Origin: Candidatus Poribacteria bacterium
GTDB lineage: Bacteria; Poribacteria; WGA-4E; WGA-3G
DNA: 64,000 bases
Assembly: GCA_965197475.1 (NCBI GenBank)
Contig: CBDANF010000002.1
Span: 1,376,001 to 1,440,000 of the forward strand
Direction of reading: 5' to 3'
Shown here: in pieces, positions 3,011 through 55,774 of the stretch
Numbering within the stretch: the stretch's first letter is position 1
Layout: every line of letters begins with the position of its first letter
Translations under genes and position numbers: made by a program
The notes under the pieces: model-generated
What the model saw: only the letters and a program-made list of their open reading frames with translations
Told to the model about the DNA's origin: nothing
Databases searched by the model: none

Positions 3011-3083
3011 AATAACTTCTGAATTTTCCAATAGGTAGGATTAGTGGTAGCAGCGAATTTGTTCGTTACTACCGCTAATTGTT

Positions 3084-3210
3084 ATACCATTTCTGAATGA
3101 TAGCATCTCATTAACAAAAAACTCGTTTGTCCTCGCGCAATTCATTGCGCCTCGGACATTCAAAATGTCGGACATCTCCGTAATGGTATTTTATTTTTCA
3201 GAATTGGTAT
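3084..3210. mobile_element. MITE with IS630-like ATACCA ends
   Basis: TIR ATACCATTTCTGAA / TTCAGAATTGGTAT; internal GCGCAATTCATTGCGC palindrome. Confidence 0.55.
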
Positions 3211-3232
3211 TATATTTCGTGGACGGACACTA

Positions 3233-3324
3233 ATACCAAATTAACTTGATTCCACTCGGTAGGTGCGGTTTCCGAACCGCACCTCATACCAAGAAAAATG
3301 AGATAAATCCCGTTAATTTGATAT
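3233..3324. mobile_element. MITE (ATACCAAATTAAC ends) carrying a GTAG-REP hairpin
   Basis: TIR ATACCAAATTAAC/GTTAATTTGATAT; inverted homolog at 31332..31422. Confidence 0.65.
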
Positions 3325-3325
3325 A

Positions 3326-4469
3326 ATACCATTTCTAATTGATTATATAGCATTAGCGATTTGTATAAAATATTCGAAACCTGTGATTTTCGCGATCATC
3401 AATGTTGAATAAATGTTCAGTATCTCCGTCACTTTTGTCTGCATGTCTTCAATGGTTTGGTATACTTGGCAAAACAACTTTGCTTTGATGTCTTGCCAAA
3501 GTCTTTCAATCGGGTTCAACTCCGGACTATAAGGAGGTAGAAACAGCAAAACAACATTGTCTGGTATTTCCAACTTTTTTGCCTGATGAAAACGACCATT
3601 ATCAAGCACTATCAGATTCAGACTATCAGAAAATGTGGCAGAAAACTGATCTATAAAGATTTGAAAACAATCTGCGTTCAGATACGGGAACTCAAGAAAA
3701 AATCGTTCACCTGTCAGTGGTTCAACCGCACCATAAAGATATATTGAGTAAAACTATAATCTATTTCCGCTACAGGTTTGATGCCTGGTAAGGTGATACG
3801 CCTATTAGCAACAGGCAAAAGACCATATCTCGTTTCATCTTCACTGAAAAGACGAATGCTTTGGTAATCCGATCGTTTCTTGTCAATCGCATCGGCAACT
3901 TCTTGTTGGAAGTTGGATATAAACGCTTTACTCTCTTCCGCGTTTTTTTTATATGGCTTGGACGCGGCACTTTGAGTTTTGCTTTCCATTTGTTATGAAC
4001 AAGCGCATAAACTGCCTTATATTTCATGGTGACACCAAAGGTATCGGCAATATACTGCTGGATCTCTCCATAACTGATGAAACCATGGGGTTTCTGCAAC
4101 TCAGAACGTAGAATGTCGCGCTGTTCTTCAGTAAGAGCTGGGACAGCCCCTGGAGGATACCGACGCTCTAAGAGTTTTTCAAGACCACCTGTTTCGTATG
4201 ACGACAACCAGTTTCCAATCGTCGTGCGATGCACACCTAACAAATCGGCAACTTGCTTACGATTTTTTGCTTGACCACTTTGTAAATGATACAACATGAA
4301 GAGCCTTTGCTTTTGATAGCTTTGGGCAGAGCACTTCATAAGGGATTTGATTTCTTCAACACTCTCGGTAATTTTGGGAACTTTTTTATTCATTGCTTCC
4401 TCACTTTATTTCAAAAGGTTGCAATAGAATATATACGCTTTATGTTATATTGTCAATTAGATATGGTAT
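3326..4469 (-). mobile_element. IS630-family element; transposase 4393..3343 split over three frames
   Basis: HTH N-terminus, SEDETRYG and LDNGRFH...LPPYSPELNPIERLW catalytic motifs; TIR ATACCAT(T/A)TCTAATTGA; A8 slippery run near 3945; extra frameshift near 3745. Confidence 0.9.
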
Positions 4470-21699: not shown

Positions 21700-22076
21700 G
21701 ATCGGGACTCCTATGCAAATGTGTCGGTATTATGGTAGATTTTGGAATTACTTGGACACTCTGCAACAGTGAGGTTAGGAAACCTCCAAATCAAAGGTAT
21801 GAATGCCATTTAGGCATTCACCGCCTACCGGGAGACGAAAGTGTCTATATATTTTTACGCAATGAGTAGTTTTGGACTTGAGAAAAATTTTAAAAAATCG
21901 CTATAAAGCCTTGTGTCCACTGGGTTTATATGGTATAATATAGATAAGAAAATAGGGGGTTGGTAGCCCCCTAAATGAACACAAAAAGCGAGTTGCTTTT
22001 TGACGGTTCTAATCTTATCTGGTATTATATCAGAAATCCGTCAGAAAAAGCAACTCCTATTTCAAGGAGTTATCTG

Positions 22077-22958
22077 ATGGATTTGTTGAAGGTGATGGAG
22101 CGTTTTCCCGATCAAGAGAGTTGTATTTCGCATTTAGAGAAGATTCGGTGGCGAGGTAAACCTGTGTGTCCGCATTGTGAAAGCGATCATATAGGAGAAC
22201 GGACAGAAACAGAAATCGGTCGTATCGGTCGTTGGAACTGCCACGAGTGCCAAGTGAGTTTCAAGGTGACGTGCAGGTCGGTGTTTCACGGGACAAAGAT
22301 AGCGTTACAGAAGTGGTTTTTGGCTATTTCGTTGATAACGAATGCGAAGAAAAGTTTGTCAAGTCATCAACTTGCGCGCGATTTAGACTTGAATCAAAAG
22401 ACAGCATGGTATATCATGACTCGTATCCGTGCTGAAATGGCAAAGAAAGGTAACGTGCTACTACAAGGCATCATAGAGGCAGATGAAACTTACATCGGGG
22501 GTAAACCTCGTAAGCCTAATAAGAAGGAAGACCACGTGCCTGCCAAGCGTGGACGTGGAACAGAGAAAGACGCTATTATCGGGGCAGTACAGCGGGGCGG
22601 GAAAGTTGTAGCACAACTCGCTAAAGATTTGACAGGACGGACTATTTTAGACTTTATCCGAAGAGTCGTCAAAGTTGAGGATTCGGAGTTGATGACCGAT
22701 GAGTATAAGGCGTATCTCGCTATCGGCAAGGAGATGAAACACCATATCATAGATCATCAAACGCAATTTGTTGAGGGTGATGTCCACACAAACACAATTG
22801 AGGGGTTTTGGAGTCTACTCAAACGAGCTTGGTATGGAAGTCATCACCACTACTGGACTGAATATACGCCCCTGTATGTAGCAGAGGCGTGCTATAAATA
22901 CAACTATAGGAGCATTGACAGTATCTTTGATAAGTTTGTTAATGAAAGTATGCGGTGA
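22077..22958 (+). CDS. IS1595-family (ISXO2-like) transposase
   Basis: Zn ribbon CPHC..CHEC, EADETYIGG, MTDEY, HTNTIEGFWS; start chosen by AAGGAG RBS and match to 55554 copy (293 aa). Confidence 0.95.
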   Translation: MDLLKVMERFPDQESCISHLEKIRWRGKPVCPHCESDHIGERTETEIGRIGRWNCHECQVSFKVTCRSVFHGTKIALQKWFLAISLITNAKKSLSSHQLARDLDLNQKTAWYIMTRIRAEMAKKGNVLLQGIIEADETYIGGKPRKPNKKEDHVPAKRGRGTEKDAIIGAVQRGGKVVAQLAKDLTGRTILDFIRRVVKVEDSELMTDEYKAYLAIGKEMKHHIIDHQTQFVEGDVHTNTIEGFWSLLKRAWYGSHHHYWTEYTPLYVAEACYKYNYRSIDSIFDKFVNESMR

Positions 22959-22967
22959 TGGACACAA

Positions 22968-23240
22968 CTAAAGGTATGCCTTATCAATCTTGTTCTTTTT
23001 GTCATCAGGATTTGAGGGAAAATGCTGTGGAAGTTCAAAAGTTGGCTTTCCATCTTTCAGAGCATCGATCATGTCAAGAGCAAATTCCAACCTCTCATTG
23101 TCCGTGTCAAAAGGTTTCTGAATCACTACGCGAAAATTTGTATCAAGTTTTACAAGGGCGAGTTCTACAAAACTCTCTGTATGTAAGGCTAAAAGTGAAA
23201 AATCAACAGGATCGGAAGGCGGCTTGAATATTACCCACAT
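22968..23240 (-). CDS. Hypothetical 90-aa passenger protein
   Basis: AAGGAG RBS; positional and length equivalent of 54238..54510. Confidence 0.7.
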   Translation of the reverse strand: MWVIFKPPSDPVDFSLLALHTESFVELALVKLDTNFRVVIQKPFDTDNERLEFALDMIDALKDGKPTFELPQHFPSNPDDKKNKIDKAYL

Positions 23241-23296
23241 GGGTTTAGTCTCCTTTGGGGTTAGAGGGGACAGAGTCCCCTCGTTGGTTGGAATTG

Positions 23297-23686
23297 CTAA
23301 TACCCGTATGGAGAATCAGCAGCTGAAATTAAAATTATCCAAAGTCCCACCATAGTGCCAGTTCCAATAACACATCCTATTGTAGCATGTGTTATTTGGT
23401 CGTTTTTCACAAGTTTTTGATAAATGCTTGTGTAATAAGCAACATATTCTGGTGATTTTCCAAGCAATTTTTCTGGTAGTACCGTTGGTGTGACAACATA
23501 CGCAATTAACATACCGGTAACACCAAGTAGACAACCAACAGTTCCCCATATTTGAGTGTTTGCAAGTGTTGCATCACGTCGTGCATCAAATATTGCTTGC
23601 GCAGCATCACTTGTTTGTTGTGCAAGTGTGAGATATGGCGTAGTGAATAACATCACAACCATTATAAACGACAAAGTTTTCATCAA
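23297..23686 (-). CDS. Hypothetical secreted/membrane passenger protein
   Basis: Signal peptide plus two hydrophobic segments; AAGGA RBS. Confidence 0.75.
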   Translation of the reverse strand: MMKTLSFIMVVMLFTTPYLTLAQQTSDAAQAIFDARRDATLANTQIWGTVGCLLGVTGMLIAYVVTPTVLPEKLLGKSPEYVAYYTSIYQKLVKNDQITHATIGCVIGTGTMVGLWIILISAADSPYGY

Positions 23687-23753
23687 TGTTCCTTTTGTGA
23701 GGTAAAATGTGTATGTAGGGGATCAAAAGACCCCCTACATGTTTGCAAGCGGA

Positions 23754-23885
23754 TTATTTACACCGCTTGTGAGGTTTGACAGTTTCTTTCACCGTTGTGG
23801 CGGGACGGCGTTTGTCCGTGCCTTTGGGAAGGAACCGTCCATCTTTGGCATCGCGTACACGCGTGCCAGTGGCTTTTTTAGCCAT
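23754..23885 (-). CDS. Small basic 43-aa passenger protein (RDAKDGRF...TTVKET)
   Basis: GAGGT RBS; first gene after the leader; followed by a hairpin. Confidence 0.6.
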   Translation of the reverse strand: MAKKATGTRVRDAKDGRFLPKGTDKRRPATTVKETVKPHKRCK

Positions 23886-23992
23886 AGTATACCTCACTTT
23901 GCTTGAGATAAATTGGTGCATAGCGTATTTCCAGTGCGTTATGCACTGTTCAAGCATATAAAATTGATACGTTAAACGGGTATCGTTCGTAG

Positions 23993-24069
23993 GTTCGTTT
24001 ACACCTTTCTATGGGTGAGGGCAGGACACAACACAAGGAGTGTTGCGATAGAAATCCTGCCCAACGAAC
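23993..24069 (-). ncRNA. Predicted structured leader RNA (three-way junction with bulge-loop kissing)
   Basis: GTTCGTT/AACGAAC, GGGCAGGA/TCCTGCCC, CGCAACAC/GTGTTGTG, CACC/GGTG; bulge TTTCTAT complementary to loop ATAGAAA; begins just after TTGACA-N18-TATACT. Confidence 0.65.
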
Positions 24070-24153
24070 TTGAGAATAGTATAACATGGAAAGAATTTGA
24101 GTGTCAAGTGAAAAATTTGAGAAAAAATTTCAAGTCCAAAACTACTCATTGCG

Positions 24154-24326
24154 TAAAGTTATTACACAACAGACCTTTAGAACCTTTAGAACTTTATGAT
24201 CTGTCAAGCGATCCATTGGAAGCGACAGACACTGCACAGACAGATACTAATCTTTATAAAGAGATGGGACATTTGTTACAGGAGGAAACACAGAAAGCGG
24301 GCAGTATCCCCTGGCAAAAAAGCTAA
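24154..24326 (+). pseudogene. Sulfatase C-terminal fragment truncated by IS1595
   Basis: ELYDLSSDPLE motif; 5' part absent. Confidence 0.7.
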
Positions 24327-27024: not shown

Positions 27025-28245
27025 ATGTCCAAGCGTGAGGAATTTATAACATTTCTCAATGAGCTCAAAATAGTTTCGCGTACTATTTCTGACGAACAGC
27101 GCAAAGGGCTTTTACAACGAGCAGTGCAGCATCATAACCTTTCTGTTGCGGAGGCAACTGAAATTCTGGGTACATCGGGATTAGTTGTTGGTGAAAACGT
27201 CAACTACTTTGAGATATTAAACCTCTCCATTGAAGACCTCCACAACTTAAATGAATCGGATATCAAGGCACGTGTTGAAACTTCACACAAAAAACTGTAT
27301 ACTGCTTCATTAATGGCGGGTGGTCGCCCCCGCTCCGATGGTAGAACAGAAGAACAGTGGCGGACGCTTTTGAATCAAGCGCGTGATGCGCTAAAAGAGC
27401 CACAAAACCGCCGCGCACACCTCGCTACCTTCCAGCATGGTGAAGATTTCATAGATGAGCCTCCAGTTCCTTTATATCTTGACAACATGGAACTTATCCC
27501 CGCAGGTGAATTTCAAATGGGAAGCAATGATGATGAGTCATTCAGTGATGAACATCCTATTCACACTGTTTTTCTTAACGCATTCTATATTGACAAATAT
27601 CCGGTGACGAATGCACAGTATAAGGCATTTGTAGATGCAAATCCGCAATGGAGCAAACCGCGTGGGTTCATAAAATTCATCCCTGCAAGATACCATGACG
27701 ACTATTACCTCCTCCACTGGAATAAGAACTACTACCCTGAGAGTAAAGCTGATCATCCGGTTGTTCACATTAGTTGGTATGCGGCGATGGCTTATGCAGA
27801 GTGGATAGGTAAGCGTTTACCGACAGAATCTGAGTGGGAGAAAGCAGCACGTGGTGGATTGGCAGGTCAAAAATATCCATGGGGAAATTTGATTGATACT
27901 GACATGGCAAACTTTGCCAAAAATGTTGGACAGACGACATCTATAGGGGAGTACCCCGCGAACGGATACGATTTATACGATATGGCGGGCAACGTGTGGG
28001 AGTGGTGCCTTGATAAATGGGATAATGGCTTTTACGAGTCTTCGCCAAGTACTAACCCGATCTCAGGTGACAGCGTAGATAGTATTATGGACAATTTTAC
28101 AAAATTTGAAACATCGCGTGTATTGCGTGGAGGCTCCTGGTACAATACTGCTGAAAACGTGCGAGTCACCAAACGTTCTGGGGCTCCGCCGGAGTACACG
28201 AATGCTAACATCGGTTTCCGATGTGTTCAATCTATTTCACCGTGA
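27025..28245 (+). CDS. J-like N-domain + FGE-sulfatase (SUMF1) domain protein
   Basis: NYFEIL...LNQARDAL..P.NRRAH; IPAGEFQMGS, RLPTESEWEKAARG, DMAGNVWEW, RGGSW...GFRC. Confidence 0.9.
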   Translation: MSKREEFITFLNELKIVSRTISDEQRKGLLQRAVQHHNLSVAEATEILGTSGLVVGENVNYFEILNLSIEDLHNLNESDIKARVETSHKKLYTASLMAGGRPRSDGRTEEQWRTLLNQARDALKEPQNRRAHLATFQHGEDFIDEPPVPLYLDNMELIPAGEFQMGSNDDESFSDEHPIHTVFLNAFYIDKYPVTNAQYKAFVDANPQWSKPRGFIKFIPARYHDDYYLLHWNKNYYPESKADHPVVHISWYAAMAYAEWIGKRLPTESEWEKAARGGLAGQKYPWGNLIDTDMANFAKNVGQTTSIGEYPANGYDLYDMAGNVWEWCLDKWDNGFYESSPSTNPISGDSVDSIMDNFTKFETSRVLRGGSWYNTAENVRVTKRSGAPPEYTNANIGFRCVQSISP

Positions 28246-28310
28246 TTTTTTGTTTCATTACACTTTTGGTCCGTGTGTGAACACACCAATTCTTAAAAAG
28301 AAGCAAATAG

Positions 28311-29610
28311 ATGTCTCAACGCGATGCGTATATAACCTTCATTAACGAGTTTAAAACGGTTTCACCGACGATCTCCGAAGAACAACGCAAAGGATTACTT
28401 CGTCGAGCAGTACAACAGCATGAGCTTTCTGTTGATGAAGCGTTTGAAATTCTGAATGCATCTGGATTGGTTATCGGTGAGCGGATAGATTATTTTGAGG
28501 TACTCGGTTTATCAATCTCAGATATTGAAACCCAAAGTGAATCGACTATTGTCAATAGCGTTGAGGTTGCACACAAAAAACTGTATACTGCTTCATTAAT
28601 GGCAGGTGGTCGCCCTCGCGCCGATGGTAGAACAGAGGAGCAATGGCGAATGCTTCTAAATCAAGCGCGTGAGACCTTGATTGATCCCCATAAAAGGCGC
28701 GAATACGTTGCTATGCTACAGCACGATGAGGCGGACTCGCTTTTAGAAGAGAAGCACCTCCTACCTTTGAACTATCTGATGTTGACAAAACAGACAGTCT
28801 GGAGTTAAGTCGTCAGATCGTTCCACCTGATGTGAATGTGCCGACTGACATGGTGTTCATCCCCGCAGGCGAGTTCCGAATGGGAAGCGATGACGCAGAA
28901 GCAAACGAAGACGAACATCCAATACACACTGTTTTTTTCAACGCGTTCCTTATGGATAAATACCCAGTGACCAATTCGGAATTTAAGGAATTTCTCAATG
29001 TTAACCCGCAGTGGCGGAAGCCAGAGTCATTCAAAGACTGTATTCCTATGGCTTATCACGATGGTGGCTACCTTAGTCACTGGGGCGACGAAACCTACCC
29101 GTACGGTAAAGGCGATCATCCGGTCACTCAGGTGAGTTGGTATGCAGCGATGGCTTACACACAATGGGTAGGTAAACGCCTGCCGACAGAGGCAGAGTGG
29201 GAAAAAGCTGCACGGGGAGGTTTCGTCGGGAAGAAGTATCCGTGGGGCGATTCTATGGATTCTAATACGCAAAGTAACACCTATAATTTAGACGATGCCA
29301 TCACGGTTGGCAGTTATTCTGCCAACAGATACGGTCTATATGACATGAGTGGCAACGTATGGGAGTGGTGCCTTGATGCGTATGATGCGGATTTCTATGT
29401 GAGTTCCCCACATAGAATCCATTTTCAGGTGTGAACAGCGTGGAGTGGGTCGTAGAACATTTCAGAAGTGTTAAGATTTCTCGCGTACTACGTGGAGGTC
29501 CTTGGGGCGTTGATTCTCAAGGTGCGCGGGTCTCTCACCGATTCAGAAGTAGTCCCACTGACACACTTCCTACTTTCGGATTTCGCTGTGCAATGGATAT
29601 TACATCATAA
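28311..29610 (+). pseudogene. J-like + FGE-sulfatase paralog with two frameshifts (~28750, ~29415)
   Basis: Pieces 28311..28808, 28832..29434 and a terminal RVLRGGPW...FGFRCAMDITS* ending at 29610. Confidence 0.8.
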
Positions 29611-29670
29611 TGTATGTTTTTAACCTTTAACGCTGTTGTAAACCTGACTGACCATGTAAGGTAAACACAC

Positions 29671-31024
29671 ATGTCAAAACGTGATGAATTCATTGAGGTC
29701 ATAAACACCTTCAAAACTGTTTCTCTGAGTATTACAGATATACAACGGCGAGGGCTGCTGAAACAAGCGGTCCAGAATTACGCCCTTTCTGTTGAGGAAG
29801 CCTCAGAAATTCTGAAGTCTCTGGGGATGGTAGTCGGAGAAGAGGTAAACTATTTTGAAGTATTGGGTCTTTCAATAGAGAAGATTCAAGGGTTAGACGA
29901 ACAAACTATTGTGAACGTTGTTGAGGCATCTCACGATGAGTGTTATAGAACGTCATTGCGTGCGGGCGCGCATTCGTCCTGATGGTAAAACAGAAGAACA
30001 GTGGCGTAATATTCTGAACCAAGCACGTGATACCTTAATAGATGCCCAAAAGCGGCGAGAATACGTGGCGACATTCCTGCTACAAGCAGACGTATTAGCA
30101 GAAATATCTCTACCGCAAGATCGACCTCTTTCCGAAAATGAATTTCAGGACATAGAACCGATACCTTCAAATATCCCAGAACCAACGGTTCCAAATGCAG
30201 AAACGGATATAACTCCTGCAAGTGATCTTGAAACTGCCTCAAGTCCCGACATAACACGAGTGCCTCCTAATATTGATGCACCTACTGATATGGTGCTTAT
30301 TCCGGCAGGTGAGTTTCAGATGGGCAGCCAGGACGAAGATGCAAATGGCACCGAAAGGCGTGTGCATTCACTTTTCGTAGAAGCGTTTCTTATTGACAAA
30401 TATCCTGTTACCAATGCACAATATAAGATTTTTCTGGATGCGAATCCTCAGTGGCAGAAAAAGAGGATTGTTGAAATTTATCACGACGGGAACTACTTAA
30501 TAACTTGGAGTGGAAACAACTACCCTCGAGGTAAAGCAGACTATCCGGTAGTTGATGTGAGTTGGTATGCAGCAATGGCTTATACACAATGGTCTGGCAA
30601 GCGTTTGCCAACGGAAGCAGAATGGGAGAAAACCGCACGCGGTGGATTAGTTGGGAAAATATACCCATGGGGTGATGAAATTGATATGAGCATGGCGAAT
30701 TTTGGGATGCATGTCGGAAAAACAACACTTATTGGGAAGTATCCGCCTAACGACTACGGTGTATATGACATGGTGGGTAATGTGTGGGAATGGTGCCTTG
30801 ATGAATATGATCACAGCTCACAACGTCCAAACCCCGGTTTAATTGTTGACAGTATTAGTGAAATCACCAATAATTTTTTGAGTATTGAAACTTCTCGTGT
30901 AGTACGGGGCGGTTCTTGGGCAAGTAGCGAACGTGCCGCGCAAGTCGCTTACTGCGGGTGGGCTGCTCCAATTGTTACATACTACAGCTACGGGCTTCGA
31001 TGTGTAAAAGACACCACCTCTTAA
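29671..31024 (+). pseudogene. J-like + FGE-sulfatase paralog with one frameshift (~29968)
   Basis: 29671..29982 and 29918..31024 join into a full paralog. Confidence 0.8.
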
Positions 31025-31331: not shown

Positions 31332-31422
31332 ATACCAAATTAACGGGATTAGTCTTATTTTTCTGGGCAGACAGCGCGCTTACAAAGCGCGCCTACCGAA
31401 TGGGATCAAGTTAATTTGGTAT
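31332..31422. mobile_element. MITE, inverted homolog of 3233..3324
   Basis: TIR ATACCAAATTAAC/GTTAATTTGGTAT. Confidence 0.65.
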
Positions 31423-31424
31423 AA

Positions 31425-31728
31425 TACCATATCTAATTGACGATTTGTCATAATAACCTGTAGGTTGGATAGAGTTTACGAAACCCAACAACTGAATGGC
31501 AAATAGGGTTTCGCTCCGATCTACCCTTATGTGTCAATTTAAGGATTTTCCGAATATGAGAAATGCTCTTCAGTCCCGTAGGGACTAAATATAGGACAGT
31601 CTCAATCATCATGTCTATTGAGAAGTGTTCATAATAACACGGACATTTTCTAAAGTTGACACATAAGGGTTTCGCTTTGATCTACCCAACCTACGAACTA
31701 ATGCAATATAATCACTTAGAAATGGTAT
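31425..31728. mobile_element. Non-autonomous IS630-type MITE containing REP hairpins and a nested TGTCAA-ended MITE
   Basis: Ends ATACCATATCTAATTGAC and ATCACTTAGAAATGGTAT match the ends of IS630 3326..4469. Confidence 0.7.
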
Positions 31729-31891
31729 AATGTGTGCATTACGAAATGCGGTGATCAGTCTTTCGCGCACATCTGGATACACTGAAATAGCATATTCACT
31801 CCGATATTTTGCCGCACATCCAGAGCAAGCACTCAAACTCATCGGGAGAGATACCGAAAATTGAATGGCTCTGAAGATATTAGGACAGAAT

Positions 31892-38193: not shown

Positions 38194-38365
38194 ATGGTAT
38201 ATTAGTATACCACTAAATCCAACATAAATCAAATTCTCTTCAAATGGTATATTAGTATACCATAGAATCCAACATAAGTCAAATTTATTTTCAAAGAACG
38301 GGATTTAATAAAACTTCAATCCCTAAGCAGATTTTAAGTATACCACATAACGTGGTAGATGTCAA
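38194..38365 (-). promoter_or_regulatory. Three tandem sigma70-type promoters for tRNA-Ala-23S-5S
   Basis: TTGACA/TTGACT/TTGATT each N17 to TATACT; two lie in a 50-bp tandem duplication. Confidence 0.75.
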
Positions 38366-38734
38366 ATTTATTTTACAAAAAATGAAACTGTGTCGTTGTT
38401 ACATTATAGTGAAATCTAAAATTACCTTTACAGTTCTCTATAGGTTTGATGCGTTTGTAGTCGCGCAATTCATTGTGCCTCTTACATATACTGGTAAGCG
38501 CGCTTTTACGAAGTTTAAGTATTTAAATCGGTAATCCCGATTTCCCATGTCCGCTAGGTGCGGTTTCCTAACCGCACCTAGCATTGATAAGAAATTACCG
38601 AATTATTTTTTTAATCTTCATTTAAGCGCGCTGTTAACAGTGTTCAAGTTATTATACGCTTTACTATAAGTTTTTACAGATTTAATTTGACTTTTGAGGT
38701 TGGATTGAGTAAAATTAACCACAATTAATTTGTT

Positions 38735-52512: not shown

Positions 52513-53498
52513 CGCTCATGTCAAGAGTAAGTGCTTTTGACAAGTTTTGCTATAAAATCAACACTGACAGCTTTTAGATTCATGACGAACTCACAGATTG
52601 CGACGTAACCGGCGAGGAACTTTTTATGAACGCCACGAAAGGGACGAAGGAAGTTTCGCAGCGTCGTCCAGGCACCTTCAATCGTCCTTGTATGGATCTC
52701 GTAAAGACCATCACCGTCTGCGTCTCTTGCCCACTCGCCATCCTTATGGAGAACAATCTCACGGGCGCGCTGAATACGGTTATAGCCACGCCAACCATCC
52801 GTATACACCGTTGAAGTCGGCAACGTCCACTGATGAACGTGTGTTGAAAGCGTCGCAGAATCGGTGTGCCGCACAACACGTAATCTCAGGAGACCGCTTT
52901 CGCGACCTTTCGTCCCAACAATAGGCGGACGATCATTGTCATAAGTCCCATGTCCCCTGCGTTTATTGCCACGCCGACGCGGCGGATCCGAAGCATCAAC
53001 GTGCTTATCGCCTTTTTCACCGGCGTTTTGAAACATCTCATCTGTTTCGACTTCAGCATCAGGTAAAGCAGCTTCGGGTTGTATCTGCTCTGCCGAAGTT
53101 TGGAGTTTACGTCTTATAGAAAGAACGGTTTGACGACTTAGACCCAGTTCACACCCGAGTTGTGCACTTGAAACACCTTGACAGACACCGCGCAAAAGCA
53201 GAACGACCTGTGAGGGACGAAACTGCGTGCCAGCAAAGACCGTCCCGGTATAGAGGTTGTAGATGCTCTCACAGTGTTTGCAGCGATACACTTGTAGACC
53301 ACTTGTTTCAGTCGGACGGAACTTGCGTGCCTCCGCCACGCTCGCTTGGCATTTTGGGCAACACAGCCCTTGAAGGTGGAAATGATCCAACACCCACGCT
53401 TGAGTTTTTTCTTCATCCAGGAGAGATTGTATTGGAAAGTCCATAGGTAACACGCTAACATAACTTTGAAAAAATAGCACTTACTTTTTACATGAGCC
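52513..53498 (-). mobile_element. IS1595-family element (transposase 53444..52521)
   Basis: TIR (C/G)GCTCATGT.AA.AGTAAGTGC; 8-bp TSD AATACATC; ETDEMF, YTDGW, TIEGAW. Confidence 0.92.
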
Positions 53499-53604
53499 AA
53501 TACATCTCAACTATTTATTTACGCAATGAGTAGTTTTGGACTTGAAAATTTTTCTCAAATTTTTTACTTGACAAAATCCTGCCAGTATAGTATCCTATTA
53601 ACAT

Positions 53605-53686
53605 CACGAAAACTTTGGTAGAGAATGTTACCCGCGTCGCAAGGCGCGGTCTCTACCATAACCAAGTAACATTGGAAAGTTTCGTG
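53605..53686 (+). ncRNA. Predicted structured leader RNA (same fold as 23993..24069)
   Basis: CACGAAAACTTT/AAAGTTTCGTG, GGTAGAGA/TCTCTACC, CCGCGTC-GCAA-GGCGCGG, CCAA/TTGG; bulge ATGTTAC complementary to GTAACAT; after TTGACA-N17-TATCCT. Confidence 0.65.
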
Positions 53687-53807
53687 TGTATAGTTCTCGT
53701 GAACCAAACAGTTAACATCATATTTATAGAATCAGCGACATAATAATCGCTTTGCATTTAGCTTATTACATCGCTGAAACCACTCCCTTTTACACAAGGA
53801 GACTATT

Positions 53808-54182
53808 ATGTCTTTGTTTTCAGATTGGAAAGAACGCAGGAAACACAAAGATAGAGATAAGTGGCTTATAAGGGAATTCCCTCGTCTTGCATTGACACAT
53901 TATGAAACCTTGCGTGATCTAAACCCTTCTGATACTCCCAAAAAGCAATTGTATGAAACGATTATTAGAGGGTTTGCTCTCACCTTTGGTGTGCCCAATG
54001 AAAAGCGCGATGAATTTACCGAATGCATTTTGCATACAGCAACTCTTGGTGAACCATCTGAACCTTTTGGTTTACGTATGATTGTTGTCTCACTTATATG
54101 CTCGACATGGAGCTTAAAGAGTGAACTATCTATTGCTGTAGCAATAACCAGCGTGTCAGAAGTAATCCCCGAATACTTATAA
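53808..54182 (+). CDS. Hypothetical passenger protein
   Basis: AAGGAG RBS, 124 aa. Confidence 0.7.
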   Translation: MSLFSDWKERRKHKDRDKWLIREFPRLALTHYETLRDLNPSDTPKKQLYETIIRGFALTFGVPNEKRDEFTECILHTATLGEPSEPFGLRMIVVSLICSTWSLKSELSIAVAITSVSEVIPEYL

Positions 54183-54237
54183 CAACTCTGACAACGAGGG
54201 GACCCTGTCCCCTCTAACTCCAAAGGAGATTAAAATC

Positions 54238-54510
54238 ATGTTTTTCGTTGAATATACCGAAAATAATGAAAGAAAAGCATTAAACTTGGCTATGTGTCAG
54301 AGAATTGAAACTGAAGAACGCCACATAAGCGCAAAAAGTAGTTTCTACATCTACATACATCACAAAGAACGCGCAAAAATGGTGTTAGAATTCAAATCAA
54401 AAGAGGAAATGTTAACCACTTTTGATAATTTTATGGACGCACTCAACCGGTGTCAAGCTCACTTGTTTTCCCAGAATGTTTTGTCTGAGGAACATTATCG
54501 GCAGTCCTGA
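54238..54510 (+). CDS. Hypothetical 90-aa passenger protein
   Basis: AAGGAG RBS within the conserved joint; equivalent of 22968..23240. Confidence 0.7.
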   Translation: MFFVEYTENNERKALNLAMCQRIETEERHISAKSSFYIYIHHKERAKMVLEFKSKEEMLTTFDNFMDALNRCQAHLFSQNVLSEEHYRQS

Positions 54511-54672
54511 ATTCTTCAACATACCTGTGAAATGCATCGATGAAATATTCAGCAACGATACAAAATTCTTCAAAGAATTCTGTTTCAGAAAGAGCAGATC
54601 TTGAAGGACTATCACTTTTCTTATCTAGTCCGTGCTGACTCAATACATCTGCCATAGAATCTCTAACTTCTC

Positions 54673-55554
54673 TCACAACATACTTTCGTTGACAAACTTG
54701 ACAAACAAGCTGTCAACGCTCCTATAGTTATACTTATAGCACGCTTCCGCCACATACAGCGGTGTGTATCCTGTCTGATAATGGTGATGCTGTCCATACC
54801 AAGCCCGTTTGAGTAGTGACCAGAACCCTTCAATCGTGTTTGTATGTGTATCACCATCAGCAAACTGCACCTTGTGGTTGATAACAGCGTGCTTCATTTC
54901 CTTTCCAATAGCGTTGTAAGCCTGATACTCATCGGTTATTAGTTCCGAGTCCTTTAGGTTTACAGCACTCCGAATAAACTCAAGGATAGTGCGTCCTGTG
55001 AGGTTATGTGCCACCTGTGCGACAACCCTACCCCCACGTTGCACTGCTCCTATTATAGCAGTTTTCTCCGTTCCTCTGCCACGTTTATGTGGTTCATCAT
55101 CTTCACGTTTGTTCTTTTTACGAGGTTTACCGCCAATATAGGTCTCATCTGCTTCAATGATACCTTGTAGTAAAGCCCCGCCTTTCTTTGCCATTTCAGC
55201 ACGAATACGTGCCATCATAAACCATGCTGTCTTTTGATTCAAGTCTAAATCGCGCGCCAGTTGATGCCTTGACAAACTTTTCTTCGCATTCGTTATCAAC
55301 GAAATAGCCAAAAACCACTTCTGTAACGCTATCTTTGTCCCGTGAAACACCGACCTGCACGTCACCTTGAAACTCACTTGGCACTCGTGGCAGTTCCAAC
55401 GACCGATACGACCGATTTCTGTTTCTGTCCGTTCTCCTATATGATCGCTTTCACAATGCGGACACACAGGTTTACCTCGCCAACGAATCTTCTCTAAATG
55501 TGCAATACAACTCTCTTGATCGGGGAAACGTTCCATGACCTTGATTAAATCCAT
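54673..55554 (-). CDS. IS1595-family (ISXO2-like) transposase
   Basis: EADETYIGG, ITDEY, HTNTIEGFWS. Confidence 0.95.
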   Translation of the reverse strand: MDLIKVMERFPDQESCIAHLEKIRWRGKPVCPHCESDHIGERTETEIGRIGRWNCHECQVSFKVTCRSVFHGTKIALQKWFLAISLITNAKKSLSRHQLARDLDLNQKTAWFMMARIRAEMAKKGGALLQGIIEADETYIGGKPRKKNKREDDEPHKRGRGTEKTAIIGAVQRGGRVVAQVAHNLTGRTILEFIRSAVNLKDSELITDEYQAYNAIGKEMKHAVINHKVQFADGDTHTNTIEGFWSLLKRAWYGQHHHYQTGYTPLYVAEACYKYNYRSVDSLFVKFVNESML

Positions 55555-55774
55555 CAGATAACTCCTTGAAATAGGAGTTGCTTTTTCTGACGGATTTCTG
55601 ATATAATATCAGATAAGATTAGAACCTTCAGAAAGCAACTCTGCTTTTTGGGTTAATTGGGAGGCTACAACCTCCCTTTTTTCTTATCTATATTATACCA
55701 TATAAACCTTGTCTACACAAGGGTTTATCACACTTTTTCACATGTTTTTTGCAAGTCCAAAACTACTTATTGCG

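Follow-up and report, generated by a model that had tools for sequence, protein, structure and literature searches.

Two IS1595-family elements and their cargo

The stretch considered here, referred to below as the window, comprises 64 kb of contig CBDANF010000002.1 from the genome of a Candidatus Poribacteria bacterium (5.7 Mb in 3 contigs, the whole of which was searched), and it holds two copies of an insertion sequence (IS), E1 and E2, whose passenger genes are connected by one and the same short sequence, here termed the joint. Both elements belong to the IS1595 family, given that their transposase matches DDE_Tnp_IS1595 (PF12762, E 1.1e-35, profile positions 2-153 of 153) and begins with a zinc ribbon, Zn_ribbon_IS1595 (PF12760, E 1.8e-9), in Pfam. 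The true ends read CGCAAT...ATTGCG, which sets the boundaries given in Table 1, and the terminal inverted repeats (TIRs) measure 24-33 nt in E1 (repeat pair I11: 33 nt, 94%) and 28 nt in E2 (I16, 93%), pair I12 being returned by the repeat finder as well. The same program aligns the transposase halves at 82% over 1076 nt (I1; 86% amino acid identity between the proteins) and the cargo-side ends, promoter region included, at 96% over 56 nt (I3). Between these common parts lie different genes. E1 encodes a 43-aa basic, a 129-aa hydrophobic, and a 90-aa protein on the minus strand and E2 a 124-aa and a 90-aa protein on the plus strand, in both cases convergently with a 293-aa transposase, and blastn at word size 11 finds nothing alike in the cargo DNA of the two classes except the joint.

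A first-pass annotation of the window had already described IS1595-family elements with common ends and transposase, differing cargo, and convergent orientation, and repeat finder, open reading frames (ORFs), and Pfam domains all agree with it. Its further claim, that the genes flanking the joint lack obvious DNA similarity, stands for DNA and calls for refinement at the protein level. BLASTP returns nothing between the two 90-aa post-joint proteins, which represent families P1 (E1) and P2 (E2); hhalign of P1 against P2 gives E 2.2e-4 at a probability of 45%, the models of both proteins have a beta sheet followed by a C-terminal helix in similar topology, and the two may be remote homologues.

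Table 1. Features of E1 and E2, in window coordinates
Feature	Position	Strand	Details
E1, IS1595-family element, cargo class A	21858..24153		2296 bp; TIR pair I11; class has six full genomic copies
E1 TIR, transposase side, CGCAATGAGTAGTTTTGGACTTGA	21858..21881	+	
E1 terminator-like sites (three hairpins with T-run), cargo direction, beyond transposase start	21953..22072	-	21973-21953, 22002-21982, 22072-22051
E1 transposase, 293 aa from MDLLKV	22077..22958	+	Pfam; an ATG upstream at 21975 would give 327 aa
E1 post-joint gene, 90 aa, family P1, beta sheet and C-terminal helix	22968..23240	-	predicted model, pLDDT (predicted local distance difference test) 80.8
E1 joint: upstream stop, CA-rich stretch, hairpin 23264-23282, TAAC..AAAGGAG, ATG	23238..23298	-	z -2.57; 74.1 bits
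E1 pre-joint gene, 129-aa hydrophobic protein, family M2	23297..23686	-	no Pfam, NCBIfam, or PADLOC match
E1 second intercistronic hairpin, 11 bp, TTTT loop, between basic-protein and membrane-protein genes	23714..23739	-	from sequence
E1 first cargo gene, 43-aa basic protein	23754..23885	-	21 clusters, 80-98% identical
E1 cargo promoter-like site, TTGACA-18-TATACT with TG, just within cargo-side end	24078..24107	-	11/12 matches
E1 TIR, cargo side	24130..24153	-	
E2, IS1595-family element, cargo class B	53522..55774		2253 bp; TIR pair I16; four genomic copies
E2 cargo promoter-like site, TTGACA-17-TATCCT	53568..53596	+	10/12 matches
E2 pre-joint gene, 124 aa	53808..54182	+	no known family
E2 joint: hairpin 54196-54214, AAAGGAG, ATG at 54238	54180..54240	+	z -2.95; 75.7 bits
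E2 post-joint gene, 90 aa, family P2 (MFFVEY...)	54238..54510	+	possibly distant P1 relative
E2 transposase, 293 aa	54673..55554	-	
E2 terminator-like hairpins with T-runs, cargo direction, beyond transposase start	55559..55676	+	

One of the far-end hairpins has a further property. The Shine-Dalgarno (SD) sequence of the transposase gene (AAGGAG) lies within the 3' arm of an 8-bp hairpin, CAACTCC...GGAGTT, at 22051-22072 and again at 55559-55580, and a T-run follows this hairpin on the other strand, so that it could both mask the ribosome-binding site (RBS) of the transposase and terminate an antisense cargo transcript.

The joint is a conserved intercistronic unit

The joint extends over 45-60 nt of the sense strand between two cargo genes. 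Its first part is the upstream gene's stop codon, set within AUAAC(C)CAAC(A)AC, after which come a G-rich hairpin of 6-9 bp, UCUAAC, 3-4 nt, the SD sequence AAAGGAG, and 7-9 nt before the AUG of the next gene. In E1 and E2 the hairpin, GAGGGGAC-YCT-GTCCCCTC, is a perfect 8-bp stem with a 3-nt loop that starts 13-14 nt past the upstream stop. The 43-nt pattern noted in the first-pass annotation has two matches in the window and no others, at 23244-23286 (-) and 54192-54234 (+), against an expectation of 0.00 from 100 shuffles; the two copies vary at 3 positions, and their similarity reaches 50 nt at 90% (I5, repeat finder). The 40/43 identity and the hairpin and RBS directly after a stop codon were correctly seen in the first-pass annotation.

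A covariance model was built from seven joints and applied to 112 genomes of the family, namely this genome and 111 related ones. Beyond 26 copies in the genome itself, the scan found 17 further joints in 12 of the 111 relatives, distributed over two genera and numbering 0-3 per genome. Exact and relaxed joint patterns gave no match in metagenome contigs, and among genome contigs they occurred only in two Poribacteria metagenome-assembled genomes. At two loci related through the E1 transposase, no joint was detected at E <= 0.1 with filters off; their passengers are ORFs of 182 aa and 287 aa, co-directional with the transposase gene.

In an alignment of 22 distinct joints fitted to the model, 93.4% of paired cells hold standard base pairs, six cells are double changes (at 2 of the 8 pairs), and eight are G-U or U-G. 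The covariation score of 0.170 was reached by none of 500 shuffles, with slid controls at 0.014-0.063. Compensated stems include GUGGGGC/GCCCCAC, GAGGGGAGA/UCUCCCCUC, and GAGGGGG/CCCCCUC, one joint has a UUCG loop, and loops range from 3 to 7 nt. Because model fitting itself favours structure, covariation is taken as moderate support for a conserved hairpin. In 11 of the 22, the stop codon of the gene before the joint has its last base at model position 6, as the UAA of AUAAC; the model closes on the ATG, and the joint lies in the orientation of its genes in every instance. Taken together, an orientation shared with the genes, a built-in stop, SD, and start codon, the variable loop, and the compensatory and wobble changes point to an RNA folded on the sense strand.

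The hairpin does not have the features of an intrinsic terminator. Stretches of 81 nt around the joint fold at -19.7 to -26.8 kcal/mol, a T-run or U-tract 3' of the hairpin is missing from all 22 variants, and the joint accordingly does not qualify as a Rho-independent terminator. A terminator scan of both elements likewise does not list the joint and finds canonical hairpin and T-run sites elsewhere in each (in E1, five against 1.8 expected in shuffles). Given the missing T-run and the canonical sites at the far end, the cargo transcript probably runs antisense through the transposase gene. At E <= 1, Rfam covariance models match nothing at the joint of E1 or E2, and the joint bears no similarity to the TIR, which disposes of a transposase-end-like sequence.

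The two sides of the joint assort independently

Clustering of the ORFs on either side of 25 joint instances by BLASTP (E < 1e-4) sorts 22 post-joint ORFs into 11 families and 21 pre-joint ORFs into 13, the latter mostly small membrane or signal-peptide proteins as judged by reading the sequences. The two sides vary independently: every one of the five multi-member pre-joint families has at least two post-joint partner families. P1, of about 100 aa with beta and alpha structure, is the commonest post-joint family (7/22), followed by P2 and small TPR proteins (three instances each; Pfam matches for the G107 member of the latter) and a helical family of 62-63 aa (two), the remaining seven being singletons. 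Among the genes that follow the joint are TPR, all-helical, 206-aa, 279-aa, and transmembrane types with nothing in common with P1. The modular cargo proposed from the window is therefore borne out over the larger set, and neither a single downstream family nor a constant upstream cargo was found. P1 itself is represented by 57 cluster representatives in a library of 1.84 billion proteins and is found in 18 of 176 genomes from the phylum. A cognate toxin-antitoxin or toxin-immunity pair is made unlikely by independent assortment; PADLOC has no match at E <= 1.

A 127-aa chromosomal paralogue of P1 is encoded at L051:1562-1945 (-) (G000:C3:2864061-2864444) with no joint or IS nearby. About 80 nt downstream on the same strand lies a 153-aa signal-peptide ORF that by eye resembles the pre-joint family M4 of relatives G014 and G100.

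In the related genomes, an IS1595 transposase remnant or TIR lies within the 3-kb locus at 10 of 16 foreign loci. The one array with several joints belongs to relative G107 (L113, G107:C6:11000-22000), where seven small membrane and TPR genes are arranged with joint-like elements in five of the six gaps. On its two sides lie a DDE_Tnp_1_3 transposase gene and, about 50 nt from the array end, a convergent 250-aa gene of the Phage_integrase family; a Phage_integrase gene beside a joint array occurs at this locus only, and none is found among the proteins of E1 and E2. Many small cysteine-rich ORFs lie beyond the array. In relative G017 (L093, G017:C1:3621634-3624692), about 1.5 kb bounded by two IS1595-type TIRs contains no transposase; it holds a membrane gene of the type found in class K (described below), a joint, a 115-aa gene, and a basic-protein gene, and may be a mobile insertion cassette.

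A swarm of elements in one genome

The TIR search recovered 34 paired elements. Six cargo classes make up most of them: A (2298 bp, six copies, among them E1; a 2082-bp deletion form, A2, occurs once), B (2255 bp, four copies, among them E2), C (2300 bp, four copies), D (2422 bp, two copies; class A with a 124-bp insertion), E (2406 bp, one copy), and F (1972 bp, six copies). Class G (1141-1142 bp, seven copies) is the plain IS without cargo, and three odd elements of 3046, 1467, and 967 bp occur once each. Each of the 24 intact class A-F elements has exactly one joint and the other two joints lie in broken class A copies, so that all 26 of the genome are accounted for by these elements or their fragments; the joint is not a common genome-wide repeat. 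The 24 intact elements encode a DDE transposase as their only mobility gene, and no integrase gene lies alongside. The basic-protein gene is missing from the joint-bearing classes B, C, and F.

All four class C copies (for example L016, G000:C2:409821-412120) have a common apparent frameshift in the transposase gene (204 aa and a remainder), and in all four the DUF805 gene is likewise split into two ORFs. Either these copies multiplied after decay, or they were mobilised in trans, or the shifts are programmed. A second and far more numerous IS adjoins E2: its 319-aa ORF, at 52521-53480 (-), is about 23.6% identical to the E1 transposase, and the genome gives about 40 tblastn matches at that level of identity.

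Mosaic classes and recombination between copies

Comparison of class representatives by blastn shows that what is common to every pair is the promoter-bearing ends, the joint, and the transposase (75-95%), with joints 85-95% identical between classes. Between classes C and E, the pre-joint DUF805 gene and the joint are 96% identical and the transposase 95.5%, yet the genes that follow the joint are unrelated. Classes A and E match at 78% in the first gene and at 91% over the joint together with 18 nt of the next ORF. The class E joint is itself composite, C-like in its 5' part up to the SD and A-like in its 3' part through ATGTGGGTAATA (ATG+18), after which its post-joint gene proceeds in another frame from a GTG start. 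From these comparisons, crossover would have taken place inside the joint once and spilled into the ORF another time. A 164-aa pre-joint gene shows 82% DNA identity between relatives G001 and G107 that stops about 10 nt short of the joint; P1 follows in one genome and P2 in the other, and it is on this comparison that the two partners of the fifth multi-member pre-joint family rest. The crossover end-points are ragged and differ between events.

Recombination between entire IS copies leaves a separate record in their flanks. The target site duplication of the IS1595 family is 8 bp (ISfinder value), and identical 8-mers flank 11 of the 34 paired elements. Twenty-two of the 31 class A-G elements lack a duplication, E1 and E2 included, whose flanks equal those of sister copies. 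In 15 of the 22, the 8-mer on the cargo side recurs on the transposase side of a different copy, which in every case belongs to the same backbone class; five wrong-orientation controls give 6, 2, 2, 0, and 1 matches. Between E2 and the class B copy at C2:263227 the exchange of flanks is reciprocal; of the two flanks of E1, one is also found at a class A copy of contig 3 and the other at a class D copy. General recombination between IS copies has thus demonstrably been frequent in this genome. A class F element inside a class A post-joint gene may provide another instance: the halves of the class A element now lie about 113 kb apart (G000:C3:2472771-2476085 and C3:2586069-2589001), each adjoining an F copy with exchanged 8-bp flanks, which is consistent with an inversion by recombination between the F copies.

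What the joint may do

The first-pass annotation had suggested that the joint is either a recombination or cassette site or an RNA processing signal. Of these, the RNA signal is favoured as the better supported, on account of strand-specific placement, the embedded stop, SD, and start, and compensatory and G-U changes; a dedicated recombination site did not find support, as only a DDE transposase is present, end-points are ragged, and class F spread with a broken hairpin. We consider that the joint is a sense-strand intercistronic hairpin and ribosome-site unit that doubles as a homology patch, through which general recombination reassorts the genes on either side, and we would put the probability of this reading at roughly 0.55. 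The homology patch is suggested because the same unit lies between otherwise unrelated genes. Each element has a promoter just inside one end and a short operon convergent with the transposase, in which genes for a small membrane or secreted protein and for a small soluble one are joined in some classes by that for the 43-aa basic protein. In the proposed scheme, the hairpin would end or protect the RNA of the upstream cistron, as a processing or stability signal rather than an intrinsic terminator, and an unstructured CA-rich leader with a strong SD would restart translation of the next cistron. General recombination or gene conversion with co-resident or incoming elements would then bring new pairs of pre-joint and post-joint genes together at the joint, and the resulting mosaics would be spread by the transposase. 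Three RNA libraries yielded contigs that cover cargo and joint with no differences (for example 22386-24156), which is compatible with co-transcription and not proof of it.

Several findings weigh against this reading. Double changes affect only 2 of the 8 pairs, and do so in an alignment fitted to the model. The class F joint has two uncompensated mismatches in its 5' arm and no predicted hairpin (z -0.98), yet the class has six copies; one of these has a target duplication, which rules the joint out as a requirement for transposition. The joint of relative G002 has one uncompensated mismatch, and some P1 genes (in G107, G009, and G064) are preceded by leaders without a hairpin. Further, class K elements share the gene layout (end, promoter, structured leader, 95-aa membrane protein, helical protein of about 95 aa, convergent transposase) without the joint, in six copies whose transposase is 74% identical to that of E1. 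The cargo proteins, apart from the DUF805 protein of classes C and E, match no informative family in Pfam, NCBIfam, PADLOC, or PHROGs, and neither post-joint model has a Foldseek match in the PDB at E <= 0.001, the ESM Atlas giving only scores of 0.80. All 15 demonstrated flank exchanges are between near-identical copies of the same class, and recombination through a patch of 45-60 nt is therefore read from the mosaics rather than observed. Finally, the RNA-library evidence consists of contigs only, in which DNA carry-over is possible.

Other explanations have to be weighed against the same observations. The hairpin might mainly be a leaky transcription stop or pause that lowers post-joint expression and limits the antisense transcript through the transposase gene. 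In E1 just 9 nt, holding no terminator, separate the convergent genes; for transcription in the cargo direction, canonical terminators appear only beyond the transposase start; and the GC-rich stem folds as strongly as the energies above indicate. This role is nevertheless unlikely given that none of the 22 variants has a U-tract, that joints also occur in arrays and loci without a convergent transposase, and that the conserved SD and start codon serve a downstream gene clearly meant to be expressed. Distinctly unlikely is a dedicated site-specific recombination site, in which units of joint and ORF would be inserted or exchanged at a folded single-stranded DNA hairpin by a recombinase, the IS1595 transposase, or a host factor, making the transposon an integron-like platform. 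The exchanged units are indeed gene-sized and bounded at the joint, covariation also fits a folded DNA strand, the G107 array ends close to a Phage_integrase gene, and the transposase-less element of G017, with the same TIRs, carries a joint. Against this, 0 of the 24 intact elements encode anything for mobility but the DDE transposase and each has one joint, crossovers end at different points in each event and reach into ORFs, and stop, SD, and start are built into a unit that always lies on the gene strand. Moreover, the perfect 8-bp stem with its 3-nt loop is unlike the longer, imperfect attC fold, the G107 integrase gene is convergent and confined to a single locus, and class F spread with its hairpin broken. 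No recombinase is consistently linked to the joint, and so a dedicated cassette site is unproven. An integrase-independent variant, in which units of joint and ORF are captured, excised, and exchanged by crossover at the folded hairpin, is improbable; its agents may be the IS1595 transposase, a host single-stranded DNA pathway (template switching at a stalled hairpin), or a tyrosine recombinase as at G107.

It is also conceivable, if very improbable, that the joint has no function and is the leftover 5' leader of an ancestral post-joint gene, the modularity being an appearance produced by fast divergence of the flanks. The predominance of P1 downstream and its possible remote kinship with P2 would fit, as would the P2 comparisons, in which similarity continues from inside the joint into the gene, and the identity of the joint (85-95%) is not far above that of transposase DNA (75-95%). 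However, the joint also precedes the several gene types unlike P1, pre-joint DNA that is 82-96% identical has different post-joint partners, and the stem has been kept by compensation across two genera in which the flanks cannot be aligned. Least probable of all, in our judgement, is that the palindrome serves as a DNA operator or RNA site for a cargo protein such as the 43-aa basic protein in autoregulation of the operon. The palindrome is perfect, and the basic protein is the best conserved cargo product (80-98% over 21 clusters), but classes B, C, and F have the joint without the gene, and covariation of half-sites spaced 3-7 nt apart is predicted by a folded strand and not by a protein operator.

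Relation to known systems

Hairpins that stabilise mRNA between cistrons, and repetitive extragenic palindromic (REP) elements inside operons, are known for example from malE-malF. Like these, the joint is a GC-rich stem-loop after a stop codon within an operon, without a U-tract, for which a role in segmental mRNA stability is plausible; unlike REP elements, which number hundreds genome-wide, it is confined to IS1595 cargo (26 of 26 copies in this genome) and related small-gene clusters and supplies the RBS of the next gene. The attC site of integrons is a long imperfect palindrome with extrahelical bases, situated 3' of each ORF. Gene-sized modules, a short structured repeat, and combinatorial assortment are shared with integrons, to which the one array of joint-like elements by a tyrosine recombinase gene, in G107, may be a further parallel, whereas the 24 intact elements have no integrase in or next to them, one joint each, and ragged crossovers, and the joint is positioned 5' of its gene with an SD and start codon and a perfect 8-bp stem.

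The modular theory of Botstein and Susskind reportedly invoked conserved linkers between the exchangeable modules of mosaic phages. As proposed here for the joint, short boundary sequences of that kind let homologous recombination swap non-homologous neighbours; here, however, the host is an insertion sequence of 2.3 kb, and the linker adds a conserved hairpin and translation signals. Mobile insertion cassettes, said to have been described by De Palmenaer and colleagues in 2004, resemble the G017 locus, and only that one, in having transposase-less cargo flanked by matching TIRs.

The IS1595 family reportedly includes "transporter IS" with passenger genes (Siguier, Gagnevin & Chandler 2009, Res Microbiol 160:232, as cited in PMC3129680). 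The joint-bearing elements are a variant of these, with the same DDE_Tnp_IS1595 domain and zinc ribbon, short TIRs, 8-bp duplications, and genes unrelated to transposition inside the ends. What differs is the promoter-driven convergent operon, the two exchangeable slots around a hairpin-RBS joint, and the coexistence of six classes. A full-text literature search, covering main texts, brought up neither a conserved joint within IS cargo nor any account of Poribacteria IS.

Other repeats in the window

Two further sets of repeats in the window lie apart from E1 and E2. Three tandem paralogous genes with a GNVWEWC-type motif occupy 27143-30835, with 63-78% DNA identity and a spacing of 1286-1440 nt (D2, D6, D9-D11). 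AT-rich short repeats, ATACCAAATTAAC... and AGTATACCA...AAATTTATTTT, recur in direct and inverted orientation at 3082-3356, 4440-4469, 31332-31731, and 38204-38381 (D12, I8-I10, I14, I18) and may be the ends of another small mobile element.

Implications

Insertion sequences are usually viewed as bare transposase genes, and here some two dozen IS1595 copies carry six combinations of passenger operon with one linker. The joint marks gene swaps across two genera of sponge symbionts, and the exchanged target duplications show that this chromosome has undergone many rearrangements through recombination between IS copies. If the proposed role is correct, the joint would be a compact natural regulatory part, hairpin and RBS together, that doubles as a recombination handle, and the elements would offer a route for shuffling small membrane and soluble proteins and then multiplying the results by transposition. 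Should the less probable integrase-independent cassettes prove real, they would amount to a transposable gene-capture platform analogous to integrons and unrelated to them. More broadly, the joint provides a testable element of 60 nt for the study of operon punctuation in an uncultured phylum.

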